IMG/VR virus record: IMGVR_UViG_3300037483_000192
Location: 1-56,872 of that record
Source: a virus
Lineage: Duplodnaviria; Caudoviricetes
Length of the DNA stretch: 56,872 nt
Direction: 5' to 3' (one strand)
Below, one piece after another: positions 37,656 through 56,872 of this stretch; within the stretch, counting starts at the first letter, position 1; every line of letters begins with the position of its first letter. Below the pieces are notes generated by a model. The model was not told where the DNA came from and did not search any database. It was given only the letters and a program-made list of their open reading frames with translations. The position numbers and the translations under genes are program-made.

Positions 37656-39366
37656 CCGCTACAAGTGACGCCATTTTTCTAATCCAATTGATTCAGCACG
37701 CCGCTGGCCTGCTCGTCAAGCTGCGCTCTCGTGATGCTGAAGTGCTCACGCCAGAAGAACGCGCATCGCTCGGCATTCCGGATGACGCTGCTCGCGAGAG
37801 GCTCGTCGCGGCAATTGACGCTGCCAAGGCCAGAGAGTCTGACGGCGGCGGCTGATCGCTTTCTATATGCACCTTCTACCTATAAACTCAGGAGACCGAC
37901 CAGCCACGGAGCCTCAAGCAGCCGTGACCGGCCGGCCGCACAAACCCGATCGGATGAGGATCGAGTATGCACAGCACAAGATTAGCACGGGCCTAGTCAA
38001 CATCATGGCACGCGCATCCGAGCCGAACGGGTTTTTGGTAAAGGCCATCGCCGTCGGGGCTACCGGGATTGTAGTTGCCGTCGTCGCATGGTCGATCATA
38101 GACGGGATTTCCGCCGACCGGGATCACAGCGTACGGCTGACTGGCCTGGAAAATAGAGAGAGCATCAGGGACGCAAGAGACGCCGAGATGCTGACGATCT
38201 TAAGAGATCTCCGCGATGCAAGACCGTAACCACCGGGAACTCGAGGCTAAGCGGCCGAAGGGGCAGGACGAGGGCGGGGCTCTGAACTCCCCCGGTTCTA
38301 TGCAGGCCGACTCAGGCGGCGGTCCGCAGCAGATCGTTCATCTCGTCGAGACCGTGGGCAAACTCGGCATGTTCGTGATTCTCGCCATGTTCCTGGTCAT
38401 AGTGGCTCTGGCGTTCTTCACTGGCCGTATAGACGGTTTGGGAGAGGCTAGGGCCGAAAGCCTCTCGACGCAAGTGCGCCAGCTAAACGCCGAGGTGCAA
38501 ATACTCAAGTCTGAATTCAACAAGACTCAGGCGCAGTTGCTCGTTCAGGACATCATAGAAAACCCGCATCAATAGGAGGTATATCGTGAGCCACGCATAT
38601 TGGCATTGGTGTTTGACCATCGGTGACGAGACTGGCGAGAAAGTGTCGCTCAGGTTGAAGGAGGGTAAGCGGGGCAATTCGTGCGGTCTGTTCAGGTTTC
38701 CACACGGCTGGACCGAGGAACAGAAGATTGAAGCTCGCGCACTCGGTGAAAAGAAGGTGATGGAGCTGACTGAGATTTTCCGCCAGCCCCAGGAAAGCAT
38801 CGTGTTCAATCCGATGCAGGGCGAGCCTACTCCGTTACCAGAGGATGATATCCCATGATGCTATTTTTGATCCTCATCGCTTTGTGCCTTGGTCATCTTG
38901 GCTTGGGTGCTCGTGCGAATCTCATCATCGCAATCGTCCTGATCGTGCTCGGCGCCATTCTCGTGTTCAGCGGGTGGGACGGCGGGATCGCCATTCGGGC
39001 ACGGGTTGACTAGATGTGTCCACCGACTCGACCGAAGTCCGCCTTGCCCGCATCGAAGAACGGATGGCCGGCAATGAGCGGGCGCTCATCGTTCAAACTG
39101 CCGACCTTGCGCGCAGGCTAGAGGACTTGAACCACGCGCACGCAAAAAACATAGCTGACAAAGCATTTTTCGTGAGCGAAGATAAGTTCGGGGGCTTCGT
39201 GAAGGAAATCCAGGCTTGGCAGAGGCAGGTAGATACTCAGCTATCGGAACTCTCTGGAAGGGCAGGCGGGGCCATCCAGGTTCGGAACACGAGTCAGCAG
39301 AACTGGGTTCTGGTGCTCATGGGGCTGGCGCTTCTGGTGGCGATTGGGGTGGCGTTTTTTAAGTAG
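37652..39366 (+). CDS. Six small lysis-region genes, four with TM segments (37652-37855, 37867-38229, 38216-38575, 38586-38858, 38855-39013, 39016-39366)
   Basis: Coupled ORFs with TM and coiled-coil composition. Confidence 0.6.
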
Positions 39367-39531
39367 GGAGCGCGTCTCGTTCGTACAGAGGCCGTTATTC
39401 GTTACGGCCAAACGCTGGCACTAATTTTCCGGGAGTATGTACTTACTGAAAGCCATATTAGATCAAGTGGTTGCACTCGCCTAAAAAGTGGTGGGATGGA
39501 TAGCTGAAAACCCTTTGGGACTGGCCTATTT

Positions 39532-39696
39532 TTAGTTCGATTTTGGCCCGGAGTGGGATTTCTCGTCCGAATCAGGCGTAGGCCAGCCATCCTTGGGGCG
39601 TTTCTTGGTTAACGCCCGCTCGACGGCCTTCTCCCAGTCCTCGTCGATCTTGACGCGCTCTGGTTCTGGTCCACGCTTACGCTTTCGCTCAGTCAT
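39532..39696 (-). CDS. Small basic transposon passenger protein (54 aa)
   Basis: MTERKRKRGPEPERVKIDEDWEKAVERALTKKRPKDGWP. Confidence 0.6.
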   Translation of the reverse strand: MTERKRKRGPEPERVKIDEDWEKAVERALTKKRPKDGWPTPDSDEKSHSGPKSN

Positions 39697-39715
39697 AGTG
39701 TGAGTATAATTGGTG

Positions 39716-39802
39716 TGCCCCCGGTGGGACTCGAACCCACACGGACCCAGGAGGCCCGCCAGCATCCAAAGCTGGTCCGTCTACCGATTTCGGCACGGGG
39801 GC
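39716..39802 (-). tRNA. Class II tRNA: Leu-type body with Pro (TGG) anticodon
   Basis: 7-bp acceptor GCCCCCG/CGGGGGC, D arm CCG-AAATCGGTAGA-CGG, anticodon arm CCAGC-TTTGGAT-GCTGG, 17-nt variable arm, T arm GTGGG-TTCGAGT-CCCAC, A73. Confidence 0.9.
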
Positions 39803-39807
39803 AAATT

Positions 39808-40911
39808 CTATCGTTTGGTCTCCACTGCCCGCAGATTCACTACGTTCTTCCGTTCTTGAGGCTTCTCGGGCAGCTGGATTCCGACCACTTCTTCTAGCAG
39901 ATCGACAGTCAACCCAAGGCTCTCTGCGATATCCTCGCGATAGATGGACACGTGGTCTCTCAAAACCTCAGCGGCCATAAGCATCGCTTCCGGTCGTTCC
40001 GGTGTATTCGGCTCGTAAGGCTCAGCCTTAGCGTAGCCACGTCTACTTAGATAGGCGTTTGCGCCCTTGAATTGCGCCGCATTGATTACTCCAAGTTCTC
40101 TCGCGCGATAAACCAAAGCTCTGAAGCTTACACCCCATCTGCGTTTCATCCCGGCAAGGCCAGACCAGTTGAAGCCACGGCCTTGCATCTCGGGGAACTC
40201 CCGAAAAAATGCGGCCTTGGGAAGTAGAAACTCAGCCGCAAATTGATTCGCTTGAGTCTCTGTGTCGTCGTCGCCAGTTACCATTCCTGAATGCATGACG
40301 AAGTGTCCGAATTCATGACACATATCGAAACGAAGCCGTGTCGGTTGGGCGGACTCGTGATTATGCAGAACGAGCGGACGCTTCTCGTTCACAGACAGGG
40401 CGCTGATCTTCTCTGATACGCCTACCGCGTTAACGCATACTGCGCCAGCGTTCTCGACGATTCTGGTGACGCTATCGATCGGGGCGTCCATACCAAGACC
40501 CCACTCAGCGCGGACAACGGCGGCCGCGCGCTCTGGTGTTTGCGATGAACCCAACTCCACATGCGGGATACAAACGGGCGGCAAATCCACATGCTGGTCC
40601 GTCCAGCTAACGATTTCTGAAACAAGGGTTGACCTTGCAATAATTTGATTTGCAAAGGTTTTGCTGGTGGTCTTTTGCTTTCTGAAGTTGCACTGATCGG
40701 CTGATATCCAATGAGTCACCGGCCGCTCAAAAAACAACGGAGTGACACCCGTAAGCGCACATAGCGCATCCGTGGTGTCCGCATTCGGCGTGCGGTCACC
40801 TACCTCAAGCTGATGTATGAACTGTCGAGAGACGCCAAGCTGATCCGCATAATCGGCTTGGCTCTTCCCACGATCCTGTCGAATTAGCTTAAATCTCTTC
40901 GGATGAAACAT
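39808..40911 (-). CDS. XRE-HTH plus ImmA/IrrE metallopeptidase fusion
   Basis: HTH QLGVSRQFIHQLE.G; RFDMCHEFGH; E.QANQFAAEFLLP. Confidence 0.95.
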   Translation of the reverse strand: MFHPKRFKLIRQDRGKSQADYADQLGVSRQFIHQLEVGDRTPNADTTDALCALTGVTPLFFERPVTHWISADQCNFRKQKTTSKTFANQIIARSTLVSEIVSWTDQHVDLPPVCIPHVELGSSQTPERAAAVVRAEWGLGMDAPIDSVTRIVENAGAVCVNAVGVSEKISALSVNEKRPLVLHNHESAQPTRLRFDMCHEFGHFVMHSGMVTGDDDTETQANQFAAEFLLPKAAFFREFPEMQGRGFNWSGLAGMKRRWGVSFRALVYRARELGVINAAQFKGANAYLSRRGYAKAEPYEPNTPERPEAMLMAAEVLRDHVSIYREDIAESLGLTVDLLEEVVGIQLPEKPQERKNVVNLRAVETKR

Positions 40912-41141
40912 CCTCGTCCTTTCCCGCGCCCTTCGGCCCTACTGCGGGAGGTCCAATCCTCTTGCCTTCCGGACGTTTCCAGGTCATACGCGAGGCATCC
41001 TGCCCCCCATGGGATGTTCTCCGGCTCAATCCCTTTAAGGGTCATCGCCGACTTTCTCGTCCGATAGATGGTTGAGGCAACGGTGCGGAGTCGGTAGTCG
41101 GATAAGTCGGGATGGTGCTCCCATGGCTCTAGGTGCTTCAT
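40884..41141 (-). pseudogene. Probably internally deleted partner gene upstream of HTH-ImmA
   Basis: PWEHHPDL...W..GC.AY N-terminus, then a shifted-frame tail IGPPAVGPK. Confidence 0.45.
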
Positions 41142-41181
41142 TTGGATGGCCCGCCAAGCTTTGTTGTAACAGGACGATTTT

Positions 41182-41268
41182 GTCAAGCAGTGAAGCCTAC
41201 GTCAAGCAAATCCTTAAAAGTCAAGCAATTATATTTTACTTGACGCAAAGCACTGGTTCTGATAGATT
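41182..41268. promoter_or_regulatory. Divergent control region of the transposon
   Basis: GTCAAGCA three times at 19-bp spacing (41182, 41201, 41220); plus-strand TTGACG, 17 nt, TAGATT (41240-41268) just before tnp. Confidence 0.7.
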
Positions 41269-41275
41269 TATGATC

Positions 41276-42253
41276 ATGACCAAGGTACAAAATAGAAGCA
41301 CCAAGGCAGACCAGCCAATCCAAGACCTTCCAGCGGCTTGTGCGGATGAGGCCGTAGCGGTTGAGTTCATGGAAAAGCACCGTTGGGGCAAGCATCCGGG
41401 TTGCCCGCGTTGCGGCGATATGGACGTCTACAAGATGGTTGGCCGTGACGGTGCCCGCGAGAAATATTTCCGCTGGCGCTGCCGGGGTTGCAAGAGCCAG
41501 TACAGTGTCCGCACGGGGACTGTATTCGAGGATAGCCGCATCCCCATGCGCCACTGGTGCTTTGCCTTCTGGCGCGCCTCAACGTCCAAGAAGGGCGTTT
41601 CCGCGCTGGAGATTCACCGTCAAACGGGACTGAGCTACAAGTCCTGCCTGTTCCTCCTGCATCGCATCCGGTTCGCAATGGCCCCAGTGGACGGCAACCC
41701 GCTTACCGGCACGGTCGAAGTGGACGAGACGTATGTCGGGGGTAAGCCGCGTCATTCTCGTGACGCTCGGGAGGCTTGGACGACTAAAGCGCCCGTGGTT
41801 GCGATGGTCGAGCGTGGTGGTCGGGTACGCTCCTTTCACGTTGCAGACGTGACCGCCAAGACCCTCAAGACCGCGATCCGGCAAAACGTGGACAAGCGGG
41901 CGCGGATCATGACAGACGAGGCCCGGACGTATCGGGGGATCGGGCGCGAGTTCGCAGGCGGGCACCACACGGTGAACCACAGCAAGAAGGAATACGCTCG
42001 CGGCGACGTATCCACCAACACGGTCGAAGGCTACTTCTCAATCGTGAAGCGCGGACTCAACGGCATCTATCACTCGGTCAGCAAGAAGCATCTGCATCGT
42101 TACTTGGCCGAGTTCGAGTTCCGCTATAACGGCCGGGAGCTGGAGGATGGGGAGCGAGTAGTTGCGGCGATCCAGGCGGCGGATGGCAAGCGTCTGCGGT
42201 ATCGTGATCCAGTAGAGAACATCGCCGCAATCGAGCCGGCCCAGCTATTCTAG
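41276..42253 (+). CDS. tnp: IS1595-family DDE transposase
   Basis: Zn ribbon CPRCG..CRGC; VEVDETYVGG; IMTDE; VNHS; TNTVEG; YLAEFEFRYN. Confidence 0.97.
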   Translation: MTKVQNRSTKADQPIQDLPAACADEAVAVEFMEKHRWGKHPGCPRCGDMDVYKMVGRDGAREKYFRWRCRGCKSQYSVRTGTVFEDSRIPMRHWCFAFWRASTSKKGVSALEIHRQTGLSYKSCLFLLHRIRFAMAPVDGNPLTGTVEVDETYVGGKPRHSRDAREAWTTKAPVVAMVERGGRVRSFHVADVTAKTLKTAIRQNVDKRARIMTDEARTYRGIGREFAGGHHTVNHSKKEYARGDVSTNTVEGYFSIVKRGLNGIYHSVSKKHLHRYLAEFEFRYNGRELEDGERVVAAIQAADGKRLRYRDPVENIAAIEPAQLF

Positions 42254-42346
42254 CGGCTCTGGGAGATGCCGCCGAAGCCGCGTACTGGAGGAGGCTAATA
42301 AGGGTGTGCAGCACAAGGTTAGTCTTGTTATGATCCACACCCAGAA

Positions 42347-42877
42347 ATGCCCAATAGCCAATATCTCAAGCACGCCGGCACCGAAATGCTTATTGCAGAG
42401 GCTAAGGTGCCACTGCCAGACGGCGGTGTTAAGGATGGGCTGTTGGCGATAAGAGCGCAGGATTTAAAGCGGCTTTGGCAGCGCGGACAACGTTTCGCGA
42501 TTATCCAACTCTATAAGTTGGTTATTCCTGGGATAATTCTGTCAAAGCACATCTTTCAAGGATTGCGACGGCCGCTGTTGACAGATGGACTACCAAACGC
42601 GGATAAGACGAAGTGGATCTATTCGCGCCGACCTCAGTTCGATTGGATGCCATCCGAACCGACCGACGGCGGTGCGGATAGGTCGGCACGAACGAGCGCG
42701 CCGGAAGGGAAGGTTTTTGTGGTGATTGTTAGCCCGAATGAACGTCACCAGGCAGAGTTTCCGATGGTTGACGGCTGGCTCGACCATTGGAACTGGGTAC
42801 AACAAGACGATGGATTGGCGGAAGCACCGAGTAACTGGTTAGAAAGGTACGACAGGAAGGTTTGGAGTTTGCAATGA
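42347..42877 (+). CDS. Transposon passenger, putative toxin
   Basis: ORF coupled by ATGA overlap to the downstream gene. Confidence 0.55.
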   Translation: MPNSQYLKHAGTEMLIAEAKVPLPDGGVKDGLLAIRAQDLKRLWQRGQRFAIIQLYKLVIPGIILSKHIFQGLRRPLLTDGLPNADKTKWIYSRRPQFDWMPSEPTDGGADRSARTSAPEGKVFVVIVSPNERHQAEFPMVDGWLDHWNWVQQDDGLAEAPSNWLERYDRKVWSLQ

Positions 42878-43275
42878 CTATGCCGAACGAATTGACATTG
42901 GAAAACTTCATCAGGGATATGCCTGAGTTTAAGCCAATGGCTTACTACGATAAGCACTTGGATGCGATACGCATTCAGATACTTGATTGCAGTATTTGGG
43001 AAGACCGTCTTGATCCCATAATGACCGTCTATCATAGAAACCATCACCCGAGACCGGATGGGGTGAATGACATAGTCGGGTTTGTAATCAAGGGCGTCCG
43101 TCACCTATTGAATACTTTGGGCAACAAGGATTCGAGTGGACCAATAGTCATCGCTGAATTTCTTGACGAAATAGTCAGGGAATACCCCACGAAGTCAACC
43201 AAGTTAGTGGTTGAGTTCTGGCGCAGCCTTGGTGAAGGCATTCCTTCGAGTATCGAGATTAGAGACGCCGCTTAG
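42874..43275 (+). CDS. Transposon passenger, DUF2283-like putative antitoxin
   Basis: YYDKHLDAI.I...IVGFVIKG pattern. Confidence 0.5.
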   Translation: MTMPNELTLENFIRDMPEFKPMAYYDKHLDAIRIQILDCSIWEDRLDPIMTVYHRNHHPRPDGVNDIVGFVIKGVRHLLNTLGNKDSSGPIVIAEFLDEIVREYPTKSTKLVVEFWRSLGEGIPSSIEIRDAA

Positions 43276-43985
43276 AAATCCAGCGTAAGCTGCTCTGGCG
43301 TGGACGCTGAGATCTCCTAGAGGTGGTCATTCACCTGTAGGTGAGCCGCTTCCCGGTGATACCAGCCAGCAGTAAGCGAGCGCGCTGCGCGTCCTCGACG
43401 CCGAAGCAGTTTTGAACTCTACGTTAACCCCCACGTTGGGATTGACGTTGACTTCATTCAGTGGAAATCGCGCGCTTTCAAATTTTGAAAGAATAACTGC
43501 GCCAACAGCATCCTCCTATGTCCAAGATGTCCACTTTCGGCCCGATTTCCGGTGCGTCCTGTTTTCAACAAGTACATACTCCCGTAATTTTCTCCAGGCG
43601 CCACCACAGTTAAGGATTGCGGCTCCCTCGTGCTCGTCGCACAAGCTCAATACCGTCTCGAACCCATCGCCGAACGCGCAACTCGCATCCGACTGTTAAT
43701 GCCACCCCGTTTGCCATGCCGATATGTGTTGCCCTGCGTTTGCAGCAGGTACAGTGTCGGCGGCTTCGTGGTTCTACTGGTTGCATGTATCGCGCGTGAT
43801 GTTCTACTGAGCCCCACTGGCCCCATGTCATTGCCAACGCCTCATTAAGTGCCGGTCAATTATCCTATCCAGCCAGCTAGGACGACATCGCACGTCGCAA
43901 ATGGCTTGCCATAACAGCGCAATCAGAAGCATAACCATCGGCGAGATAAGAACTATCAGGTGAATCAGTTCAGGATCATCGAAGA

Positions 43986-56356: not shown

Positions 56357-56872
56357 TCATAGCGCTTCACCGATAATTTCGCGAGTCAGCGCCCCATACT
56401 TTTCGTCGTCCCCAACGACTTCCCCGATCAGAGCGACAATCCACCAGCGCGAACCTTTCCACTTCGGCGGGATAAGGGTTGCGTGTAGCGTTCCGCGCTC
56501 ACACAACGAGAGCGGCCCCGGTGATGTTTCGACGACTCCTGGGGCAACAGGATTATTGCTGCCACCGTTGCACGCTCGCCCGTCGTCACCAGACCGCCAG
56601 AACGCGATCTTTGCTCCGAGCTTTTCCAGCTCGGCTAATCTCGCGCGTTGCGTGGCGCTCCATCGCGCAGAGAAATATTTGATGGTCTTGGACCAGTAAG
56701 ACCCGTCCCCGGACCCGTCCCCGGACCCGGACCCGTCCCCGTACCCGTACCCGTCCCCGGCCCCGTCCCCGGCCCCGTACCCGGCCCCGGCCCCGTACCC
56801 GTCCCCGTCCCCGTCCCCGTACCCGTCCCCGTACCCGGCCCCGTACCCGGCCCCGTCCCCGTCCCCGTACCC
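56357..56872 (-). CDS. 3' part of the Gly-X repeat protein, with a globular C-terminal domain
   Basis: Repeat continues into SYWSKTIKYF...CERGTLHAT...RWWIVAL.GEV...REIIGEAL*; missed by the ORF track because no start lies in this part. Confidence 0.8.
   Translation of the reverse strand, partial: GYGDGDGAGYGAGYGDGYGDGDGDGYGAGAGYGAGDGAGDGYGYGDGSGSGDGSGDGSYWSKTIKYFSARWSATQRARLAELEKLGAKIAFWRSGDDGRACNGGSNNPVAPGVVETSPGPLSLCERGTLHATLIPPKWKGSRWWIVALIGEVVGDDEKYGALTREIIGEAL

Follow-up and report, generated by a model that had tools for sequence, protein, structure and literature searches.

The 56,872-bp IMG/VR record IMGVR_UViG_3300037483_000192 was analysed at its full length (hereafter, the window) and taken as an entire genome. 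It carries a 4,155-bp transposon of the IS1595 family, and inside this element lies the subject of the present analysis, a tRNA gene in which a leucine-type (Leu-type) body is combined with the proline anticodon UGG. The element also encodes its transposase, a fusion of an XRE-type helix-turn-helix (HTH) domain with an ImmA/IrrE peptidase domain (HTH-ImmA), a small basic peptide and two cargo open reading frames (ORFs) (Table 1). The element shares with the insertion sequences of the IS1595 family a DDE_Tnp_IS1595 domain with an N-terminal zinc ribbon, terminal inverted repeats (TIRs), here of 22 nt, and an 8-bp target duplication, which in this case is perfect (TAATTTTC). An earlier reading of the DNA, made from the letters alone (the sequence-only reading), had called the tRNA transposon-borne, and the TIRs and the duplication confirm this.

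Table 1. Coordinates of the tRNA, of the special transposase codons and of the other features of the transposon in the window.
Feature	Position	Strand	Evidence
Class-II tRNA, Leu-type body, anticodon UGG, A37, G1:C72, A73	39716..39802	-	Direct reading, ARAGORN, Rfam, family model R1
Anticodon UGG	39766..39768	-	Direct reading; identical in contigs of runs X5, X6, X11
Special CCA codon S1 (Pro21)	41330..41332	+	Codon alignment
Special CCA codon S2 (Pro139)	41684..41686	+	Codon alignment
Special CCA codon S4 (Pro314)	42209..42211	+	Codon alignment
IS1595-family DDE transposase, 327 aa	41270..42253	+	Pfam DDE_Tnp_IS1595 1e-42, Zn_ribbon_IS1595 1.3e-09; start inferred by aligning relatives
Left TIR (CGGGAGTATGTACTT...)	39430..39451	.	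Target duplication TAATTTTC at 39422-39429
Right TIR	43563..43584	.	Target duplication TAATTTTC at 43585-43592
HTH (XRE) + Peptidase_M78/ImmA-IrrE fusion gene	39808..40911	-	Pfam HTH_3 1.5e-09, Peptidase_M78 2e-16
Small basic peptide, 54 aa, motif GPxPE..W..A....L.KKRP..GWP	39532..39696	-	Core gene of the transposon family; tblastn
Two overlapping cargo ORFs, 176 and 137 aa	42347..43275	+	No Pfam family; variable, not kept in sister elements
Divergent promoter-like sites	41177..41268	.	Consensus matches only

The cloverleaf, the TGG anticodon, the long variable arm, A15:U48, the D loop, G1:C72, A73, A37 and the CACCA tail had all been described in the sequence-only reading, and all were found again by direct reading, ARAGORN and Rfam. 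ARAGORN reported a single tRNA in the window (39715-39802, minus strand), which it labelled tRNA-Pro(tgg). Rfam RF00005 matched the gene over the full model with 54.4 bits (gathering score 29, E 5.3e-09), and the covariance model R1 of the family described below gave it 87.8 bits. The tRNA has 7/5 geometry: the acceptor stem (GCCCCCG/CGGGGGC) pairs at 7/7 positions and the T stem (GUGGG/CCCAC) at 5/5, the latter closing a canonical T loop, UUCGAGU. The D stem consists of three pairs and an A13/A22 mismatch, with the D loop AAUCGGUAGA. The anticodon stem (CCAGC/GCUGG) pairs at 5/5 positions, and its loop, UUUGGAU, presents UGG at 39768-39766, followed by A at position 37. The variable region is 18 nt long and includes a stem; U8 and U48 are present, and U48 pairs with A15. 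When the window was scanned with a pattern consisting of a Leu-type D loop, an NGG anticodon and a long arm, a single match was obtained, compared to none in 100 shuffles. We considered the possibility that the anticodon was an assembly or sequencing error, but contigs of other sequencing runs (X5, X6 and X11) span it with no differences and dozens of relatives carry UGG, which rules this out; the contig of run X8 stops short of the anticodon.

The same pattern was used for a first survey of viral contigs and species-representative genomes. The viral contigs yielded 18 loci, including five clear Leu-type tRNAs with UGG and A37 and five Pro-type bodies with long arms. At least 120 stretches were found in the genomes, 80 of which were listed; among the listed matches, 55 were 51-nt archaeal off-targets, while 14 were full Leu-type NGG tRNAs and one more was cut by the end of its locus, all of them bacterial. 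At least seven further Leu-type NGG tRNAs were present among 40 other genome loci. Judged by the record titles, the listed bacterial tRNAs span at least six phyla (Pseudomonadota, Acidobacteriota, Actinomycetota, Planctomycetota, Chloroflexota and Gemmatimonadota). A homologue of the window transposase was located within 4 kb in 10 of 20 Leu-type NGG loci, and a homologue of HTH-ImmA in 4 of the 20.

A second sampling, by transposase similarity alone, removed the bias toward the NGG pattern and took the best 80 of 350 viral and the best 80 of at least 581 metagenome relatives. Model R1, built from 40 aligned class-II tRNAs, was then searched over 157 distinct transposase loci, together with ARAGORN and Rfam. 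UGG decoders were found in 31 of the 157 loci, and 24 of these 31 came from loci sampled by transposase similarity alone. The other anticodons associated with elements were CGG (3), AGG (3), UGC (3), GUC (1) and GGA (1); Ser-type bodies with CGC and UAU were also seen, the UAU one outside its element. The tRNAs were concentrated among transposases at least 47% identical to that of the window. In 14 checked elements (the window, L086, L087, L167, L223, L225, L228, L299, L301, L302, L310, L316, L321 and L355), a conserved TIR (CGGAAGTATGTACTT...) and perfect 8-bp duplications enclose both tRNA and transposase. The window tRNA is a member of a widespread, transposon-borne family of Leu-type tRNAs with proline anticodons. 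The prospect, raised in the sequence-only reading, that its homologues might all bear a Leu anticodon did not materialize, as the relatives keep UGG.

The family has been maintained as tRNA. Across the 40 aligned relatives, 98.2% of the stem cells pair, versus 66.5% in shuffles and 40-48% for slid partners, and both sides change in 18 of the 20 pairs. U8, G9, G19 and A73 are invariant (A73 in 40/40), and A14, A15, G18 and U48 are at least 90% conserved. Since A73 is not needed for folding, its invariance, together with the covariation, points to selection on both the tRNA fold and the discriminator; it is retained whatever the anticodon. The pair C1:G72 occurs in 5/40 members, two of which bear an Ala anticodon. 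An alanine identity of the UGC members was considered and ruled out, as they lack G3:U70. In some relatives, the T loop is degenerate or the arm very long (97-116 nt).

The strongest signal came from the transposase, and it points to a self-directed role that had not been proposed in the sequence-only reading. Codons were compared in a codon-aware alignment of the 157 transposases, 31 with a UGG tRNA and 113 with no detected tRNA. Four columns are enriched in CCA among their proline codons (27/41, 19/38, 19/45 and 23/58, against a background of 18.5%). At three of these four, the special columns S1, S2 and S4, the group with a UGG tRNA has CCA in 49 of 56 proline codons, compared to 5/66 at three universally conserved proline columns (Fisher 2e-20, a value to be discounted because the counted sequences are related and such tests overstate their independence) and 40/191 elsewhere. 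In the 113 loci with no detected tRNA, CCA makes up 17/72 at the special columns. Of 61 conserved four-fold columns, S1 alone has an A-ending codon with a share above 0.4; this codon reaches 0.88 there, versus a median top-codon share of 0.50. This coupling of the tRNA anticodon to reserved CCA codons in the transposase is the best-supported new element of the analysis.

The two traits also change together. On the transposase tree, rows with neither a UGG tRNA nor CCA at S1 lie in at least four separate places, and the closely related L192 (UGG, CCA at S1) and L170 (CGG, CCT at S1) differ in both. No matched CCG sites were found in the members with a CGG tRNA. As to a match of AGG anticodons with CCT codons, L243 and L355 have CCT at two special sites, but CCT at S4 is common in that distant clade with no tRNA at all. 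Strict gating by a rare codon is weakened as an explanation, since CCA accounts for 20% of the proline codons in the flanking genes and for 123/575 (21%) in 41 ORFs of the phage itself. We also considered whether the anticodon loop pairs with more of the mRNA than the CCA codons, but the bases flanking these sites show no conservation beyond the constraints of the neighbouring Ile and Leu codons. In an AF2 model of the transposase (pLDDT 89), Pro21 lies within a predicted helix and Pro139 and Pro314 in coil, which does not decide between Pro and Leu.

The small peptide is the third constant gene of the transposon clade, beside the tRNA and the transposase, and was matched by tblastn in 34 distinct loci; it has no Pfam family. 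In the window, its conserved Pro10 and Pro12 are both encoded by CCA. Among relatives, the first conserved proline is CCA in 12/27 and CCA or CCG in 21/27, while the proline of the GWP motif is CCA in 0/24.

Bacterial leucyl- and seryl-tRNA synthetases (LeuRS and SerRS) ignore the anticodon, so that Leu- and Ser-type bodies are the scaffolds expected for anticodon swapping, whereas G35, G36 and A73 are determinants of the bacterial prolyl-tRNA synthetase (ProRS). The window tRNA shares its layout with 12 genuine tRNA-Leu of carrier genomes, to which it is 56-71% identical; its identity to four canonical tRNA-Pro is 45-55%. It has the class-II architecture of a bacterial tRNA-Leu, the 3-bp D stem with a 13:22 mismatch, the Leu-type D loop placing G18G19, A15:U48 and A73, and departs from it in having UGG in place of an NAG or YAA anticodon. 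With tRNA-Pro it shares G35 and G36, but not the body: the three 5'-complete canonical tRNA-Pro genes of carrier genomes G002, G003 and G005 have a short variable loop, C1:G72 and G37, where the window tRNA has its 18-nt variable region, G1:C72 and A37. A recent origin by copying of a host tRNA-Leu was ruled out, since family members are only 55-67% identical to the tRNA-Leu of their own genomes. An ordinary class-I tRNA-Pro(UGG) was present in three of the five carrier genomes searched (G002, G003 and G005; the pattern missed the other two, which does not imply absence). The odd tRNA is therefore an addition to the host set and not a replacement.

One sister element supplies a tRNA of a different type. 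In L310, three odd tRNAs stand in a row (L310:4478-4888), one of them Ser-type, with G73, a CCA end and the anticodon UGG. Its best pairwise match is tRNA-Ser (69%, versus 56-63% to tRNA-Leu), and the transposase of L310 has CCA at all three special sites. Taken together, the Leu-type body, the invariant A73, the Ala-anticodon members without G3:U70 and the Ser-type tRNA of L310 favour charging by LeuRS or another anticodon-blind synthetase, as far as identity may be predicted from such features.

We give an even chance to the reading that the RNA is a functional decoding tRNA, carried as a conserved passenger of this IS1595 clade mainly as a private decoder of the CCA codons of the transposase, and most probably charged by LeuRS. 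A tRNA of leucine architecture would then read the proline codon CCA in competition with the host tRNA-Pro(UGG), and its targets would be the three fixed, substitution-tolerant prolines of the transposase, Pro21, Pro139 and Pro314. If LeuRS charges it, a fraction of the transposase molecules would have Leu for Pro at these positions. The outcome would be either a second transposase isoform or a translational gate that ties transposase output to expression of the tRNA; low-level Pro-to-Leu misreading of other CCA codons in host or phage genes would be a side effect. The structure and conservation of the tRNA, its place within the transposon, the recurrence of UGG and the match of codons to anticodon are direct results, while expression, charging by LeuRS and a role in isoforms or gating are inferences. 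We rank a non-proline, or otherwise qualitatively distinct, decoding first, with moderate confidence, since insertion of the same amino acid gives little reason to hold CCA against a GC-rich codon bias. In its fullest form, the proposal is that the element encodes its own ambiguous code, in which an anticodon-swapped tRNA (Leu-type, in some relatives Ser-type) is set against the host tRNA-Pro at three reserved CCA codons, giving two isoforms or gated synthesis from a single frame. This version we offer tentatively, as possible rather than probable.

A number of observations weigh against a private, LeuRS-charged decoder. L299 and L318 have a UGG tRNA yet CCT at S1, while L221, a complete element with no tRNA, has CCA. 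(The row of L316, one of three cases with UGG but not CCA, pairs a transposase with the tRNA of a second, neighbouring element and is mis-paired; it is still included in the counts.) In L309 and L324, two complete sister elements with no tRNA, proline is retained at S1, S2 and S4 (CCG or CCC) and is thus functional at these sites. Other, more distant relatives have A, D, N, E or Q at S1 and S2, and Leu in only 2/157 and 1/157. CCA was found in no case at a conserved hydrophobic column in the 31 transposases of the UGG group. With no such case, and Leu being rare at S1 and S2 in relatives, the idea of an “encrypted leucine”, with CCA placed where the protein needs Leu, is unsupported; the special sites are proline or tolerant positions, not hidden leucines. 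At essential prolines, CCA is no rarer in tRNA-bearing (5/66) than in tRNA-less elements (25/259; p 0.81), and the conserved prolines of the small peptide take CCA and CCG freely. Because the window gene has no CCA directly after A73, maturation would require RNase Z-type cleavage and CCA addition. Finally, G35, G36 and A73 fit the determinants of ProRS, which could therefore charge the window tRNA. The Leu charging and Pro-to-Leu mistranslation put forward in the sequence-only reading are thus plausible but only partly upheld: the Leu-type body, A73 and the Ser-type tRNA of L310 agree with them, whereas the prolines of L309 and L324 and the lack of CCA at hydrophobic columns do not.

An alternative is that ProRS charges the tRNA with proline via G35, G36 and A73, in which case it would be an odd-shaped extra tRNA-Pro that speeds the decoding of the element's own CCA codons, with no miscoding. 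The prolines of L309 and L324, the lack of CCA at conserved Leu and other hydrophobic columns and the fact that CCA is not additionally avoided at essential prolines are all in keeping with this, as are the use of CCA or CCG for the first conserved proline of most small peptides and the presence of C1:G72, the acceptor pair of bacterial tRNA-Pro, in five family members. We nevertheless regard it as unlikely. The strong selection for CCA at the special sites is hard to explain in this way, since CCA is common in the flanking genes and the hosts own a tRNA-Pro(UGG). The pair C1:G72 does not track the Pro anticodon, as shown by the two members with an Ala anticodon, and L310 serves the same CCA sites with a Ser-type tRNA with G73. 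The window tRNA itself has G1:C72, A15:U48, A37 and a long arm, none of which is a feature of tRNA-Pro; the long arm faces class-II synthetases.

Less probable still is a general mistranslating or toxic effector, along the lines of the sequence-only reading, charged with Leu and misreading CCA or CCN codons throughout the proteome, which would serve as a stress, addiction, defence or anti-defence factor under the control of HTH-ImmA, the CCA codons of the transposase being incidental. The Leu-type body and its anticodon-blind synthetase would suit such a role, and the phage offers many targets (the 123 CCA codons in its 41 ORFs). The tRNA trails the XRE-ImmA regulator by 5 nt in the window and by 16 nt in L166, and sister elements bring along cargo related to toxin-antitoxin systems or defence. 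Mukai et al. (2017, PMC5389517) likewise reported toxin-antitoxin genes in the vicinity of allo-tRNAs, two variants of which were lethal to E. coli. Such an effector would, however, leave unexplained why CCA is kept at specific sites of the transposase and why it disappears along with the tRNA or with a switch to another anticodon. Moreover, HTH-ImmA accompanies the tRNA in only a minority of loci (the 4/20 noted above), the constant parts of the elements are the tRNA, the transposase and the small peptide while the cargo varies, and the element genes do not avoid CCA.

We consider it very improbable that the RNA has a non-translational function (processing signal, stability element or transposition cofactor, for which the translationally inactive allo-tRNA-UAU species of Mukai et al. 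2017, PMC5389517, might be cited) or is a decayed gene such as a point-mutated tRNA-Leu(UAG) pseudogene (the family loop CUUGGAA is one change from the CUUAGAA of a genuine tRNA-Leu(UAG) in G005, and some relatives have the degenerate T loops or 97-116-nt arms mentioned above). Against both speak signs of selection on decoding, namely covariation in all four stems, the conserved U8, G18/G19 and A73, U33 within an anticodon loop of 7 nt, and the presence of UGG in 31 loci. The agreement of the anticodon with the transposase codons implies decoding on the ribosome, and the T loop of the window copy is canonical.

Several known systems resemble parts of this arrangement. In Streptomyces, the bldA tRNA-Leu(UAA) is the sole, cognate decoder of TTA, which is kept at a few positions of regulatory targets. 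The transposon-borne family likewise has one codon at few fixed positions of a target gene matched to one tRNA gene; unlike bldA, its tRNA body is non-cognate, and the tRNA is not the sole decoder of its codon in the cell, an ordinary tRNA-Pro(UGG) being present in three of the five carrier genomes. The nev-tRNAs of nematodes, which are encoded by eukaryotic chromosomal genes, combine a non-cognate anticodon with an anticodon-ignoring synthetase and thereby bring Leu or Ser to other codons. The same is achieved with tRNA-Leu and tRNA-Ser whose anticodons have been engineered (Hasan et al. 2024, PMC11028032; Berg et al. 2019, PMC6827378), and the tRNA-Ser(UGG) made in the laboratory is the counterpart of the Ser-type UGG tRNA in L310. 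Unlike nev-tRNAs and laboratory constructs, the window tRNA occurs naturally in bacteria or phages, resides on a mobile element and is coupled to fixed codons in a gene of its carrier.

Closest in appearance are the allo-tRNAs and “polycistrons of irregular tRNAs” of Acidobacteria and soil metagenomes (Mukai et al. 2017, PMC5389517; reviewed by Krahn et al. 2020, PMC7609411). As described there, allo-tRNAs are class-II-like bacterial tRNAs with an anticodon that does not fit the synthetase identity; the family shares with them a toxin-antitoxin or transposon neighbourhood, and one pseudogene described there overlaps a “transposon-related protein” (PMC5389517). The polycistrons have a counterpart in the small irregular tRNAs that adjoin the class-II tRNA in L301, L302, L303, L314 and L325. 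In allo-tRNAs, however, the 12-bp acceptor branch is divided 8/4 or 9/3 between acceptor and T stem, and their identity is Ser or Ala (PMC5389517), whereas the window tRNA is 7/5 with Leu features and A73. The terms “UGG”, “tRNALeu” and “LeuRS” do not occur in the main text of Mukai et al. (2017), which describes no residence in IS1595 elements and no matched transposase codons. In Streptomycetaceae, tRNA-ProX together with ProRSx forms a natural mistranslating tRNA family (Schuntermann et al. 2023, PMC10404621) in which, as here, body identity and anticodon disagree. In contrast to the window tRNA, tRNA-ProX has a Pro body with Ala, Thr or Asn anticodons and a dedicated synthetase paralogue; there is no synthetase gene in the window element, and neither transposons nor mobile elements are mentioned in PMC10404621.

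The IS1595 family includes subgroups that carry passenger genes. By title and abstract, none of the papers found on such passengers deals with a tRNA that is conserved in this role. Nor was the family described in the literature on tRNA-Leu(UGG), on allo-tRNAs with transposases or on transposon-borne missense suppressors, and as far as found it is unreported; the supplements of PMC5389517 may list similar tRNAs.

Natural tRNAs with mismatched body and anticodon are rare, and each is usually regarded as a curiosity confined to one lineage. The gene described here is conserved and mobile: its insertion sequence occurs in phage contigs, in metagenomes and, to judge by record titles, in the genomes of at least six bacterial phyla, and the transposase codons have co-evolved with it. 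If the tRNA is charged with Leu, ambiguity of the genetic code would be horizontally transferable and used by a selfish element on its own gene, and a codon-misreading tRNA would be spreading among phages and these phyla. This would bear on the origin of codon reassignments, on the regulation of insertion sequences and on genome annotation, in which such genes are now called tRNA-Pro. A second isoform or a translational gate would constitute a new control of transposition, comparable in purpose to the programmed frameshifting of IS1 and IS3 and the inhibitor isoform of Tn5. The system is small and defined, with one tRNA, one transposase and three codons, and is thus directly testable.

The tRNA gene begins 5 nt (AATTT) past the TAG stop of the HTH-ImmA gene, the spacing given in the sequence-only reading, which also suggested co-transcription. 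No promoter-like or terminator-like site was found between the two genes in a consensus scan, and the minus-strand promoter-like site TTGACG-17-CAAAAT faces the ImmA-tRNA-peptide unit from upstream of ImmA. The tRNA is thus probably co-transcribed with the regulator, to judge from these consensus matches. The plus-strand counterpart, TTGACG-17-TAGATT, lies just ahead of the transposase start. HTH-ImmA homologues adjoin the sister tRNAs in L166, L163 and L107, and another is present in element L348. The cargo of sister elements is variable, consists of regulators and of toxin-antitoxin or defence genes, and includes SocA/Panacea, MqsA-like, NYN, Schlafen AlbA_2 and Bro-N genes.

The element closest to that of the window, L219 (transposase 71% identical), has a SocA/Panacea-domain gene and two class-II tRNAs (L219:6080-6195 and L219:7348-7435), one a 116-nt Leu-type UGG tRNA and the other Ser-type with CGC. 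The small irregular tRNAs of sister elements are of class-I length (L301:4840-5006, L302:2265-2339, L303:44-117, L314:5585-5659 and L325:451-524), and their anticodons are UCG, UGG with A37, GGC, AGU, CGU and ACU. A cluster of irregular tRNAs was also seen in a Phycisphaeraceae chromosome (L380; G002, C1:3448906-3451935), where 74-75-nt “tRNA-Leu” (GAG, CAG) with no long arm stand beside His, Pro, Ala and normal-length Leu(UAA) tRNAs. Pro-type UGG tRNAs with long arms also occur in phage tRNA arrays (L084:9466-9551, L085:1010-1097, L091:5161-5247 and L095:3393-3481); with a C1:G72-like acceptor, G37 and variable regions of about 18-20 nt, they are distinct from the Leu-type family. The 55 archaeal loci (L100-L177), from Methanomicrobiales and related groups, share a conserved 51-nt stretch with a tRNA-like T arm and a UUGGG motif and were treated as off-target.

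Genes for a terminase, a portal, an amidase, a DNA-ejection protein and tail fibres mark the window genome as phage-like. Its closest portal relatives in IMG/VR are at most 48% identical, and megablast of positions 38000-43000 against named phages gave no match. In viral contigs, neither the exact D-arm/anticodon-arm pattern of the window tRNA nor the HTH-ImmA protein was matched. No empty-site joint across the transposon was seen in four sequencing runs; the contigs of the other runs stop or change exactly at the ends of the element (records starting at 39428, and a loose end at 43585), as expected if those samples contain it in several copies or in other contexts. Among 24 runs, no RNA run with this stretch was listed, a blank that has no bearing on expression. 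Both ends of the record consist of an array of a 6-nt unit (GNNCCC) in the same orientation (1-208, 34 copies; 56702-56872, 28.5 copies), which suggests that the assembly is circularly closed or permuted and passes through a single long repeat. On its minus strand, the array could encode a Gly-X dipeptide repeat.

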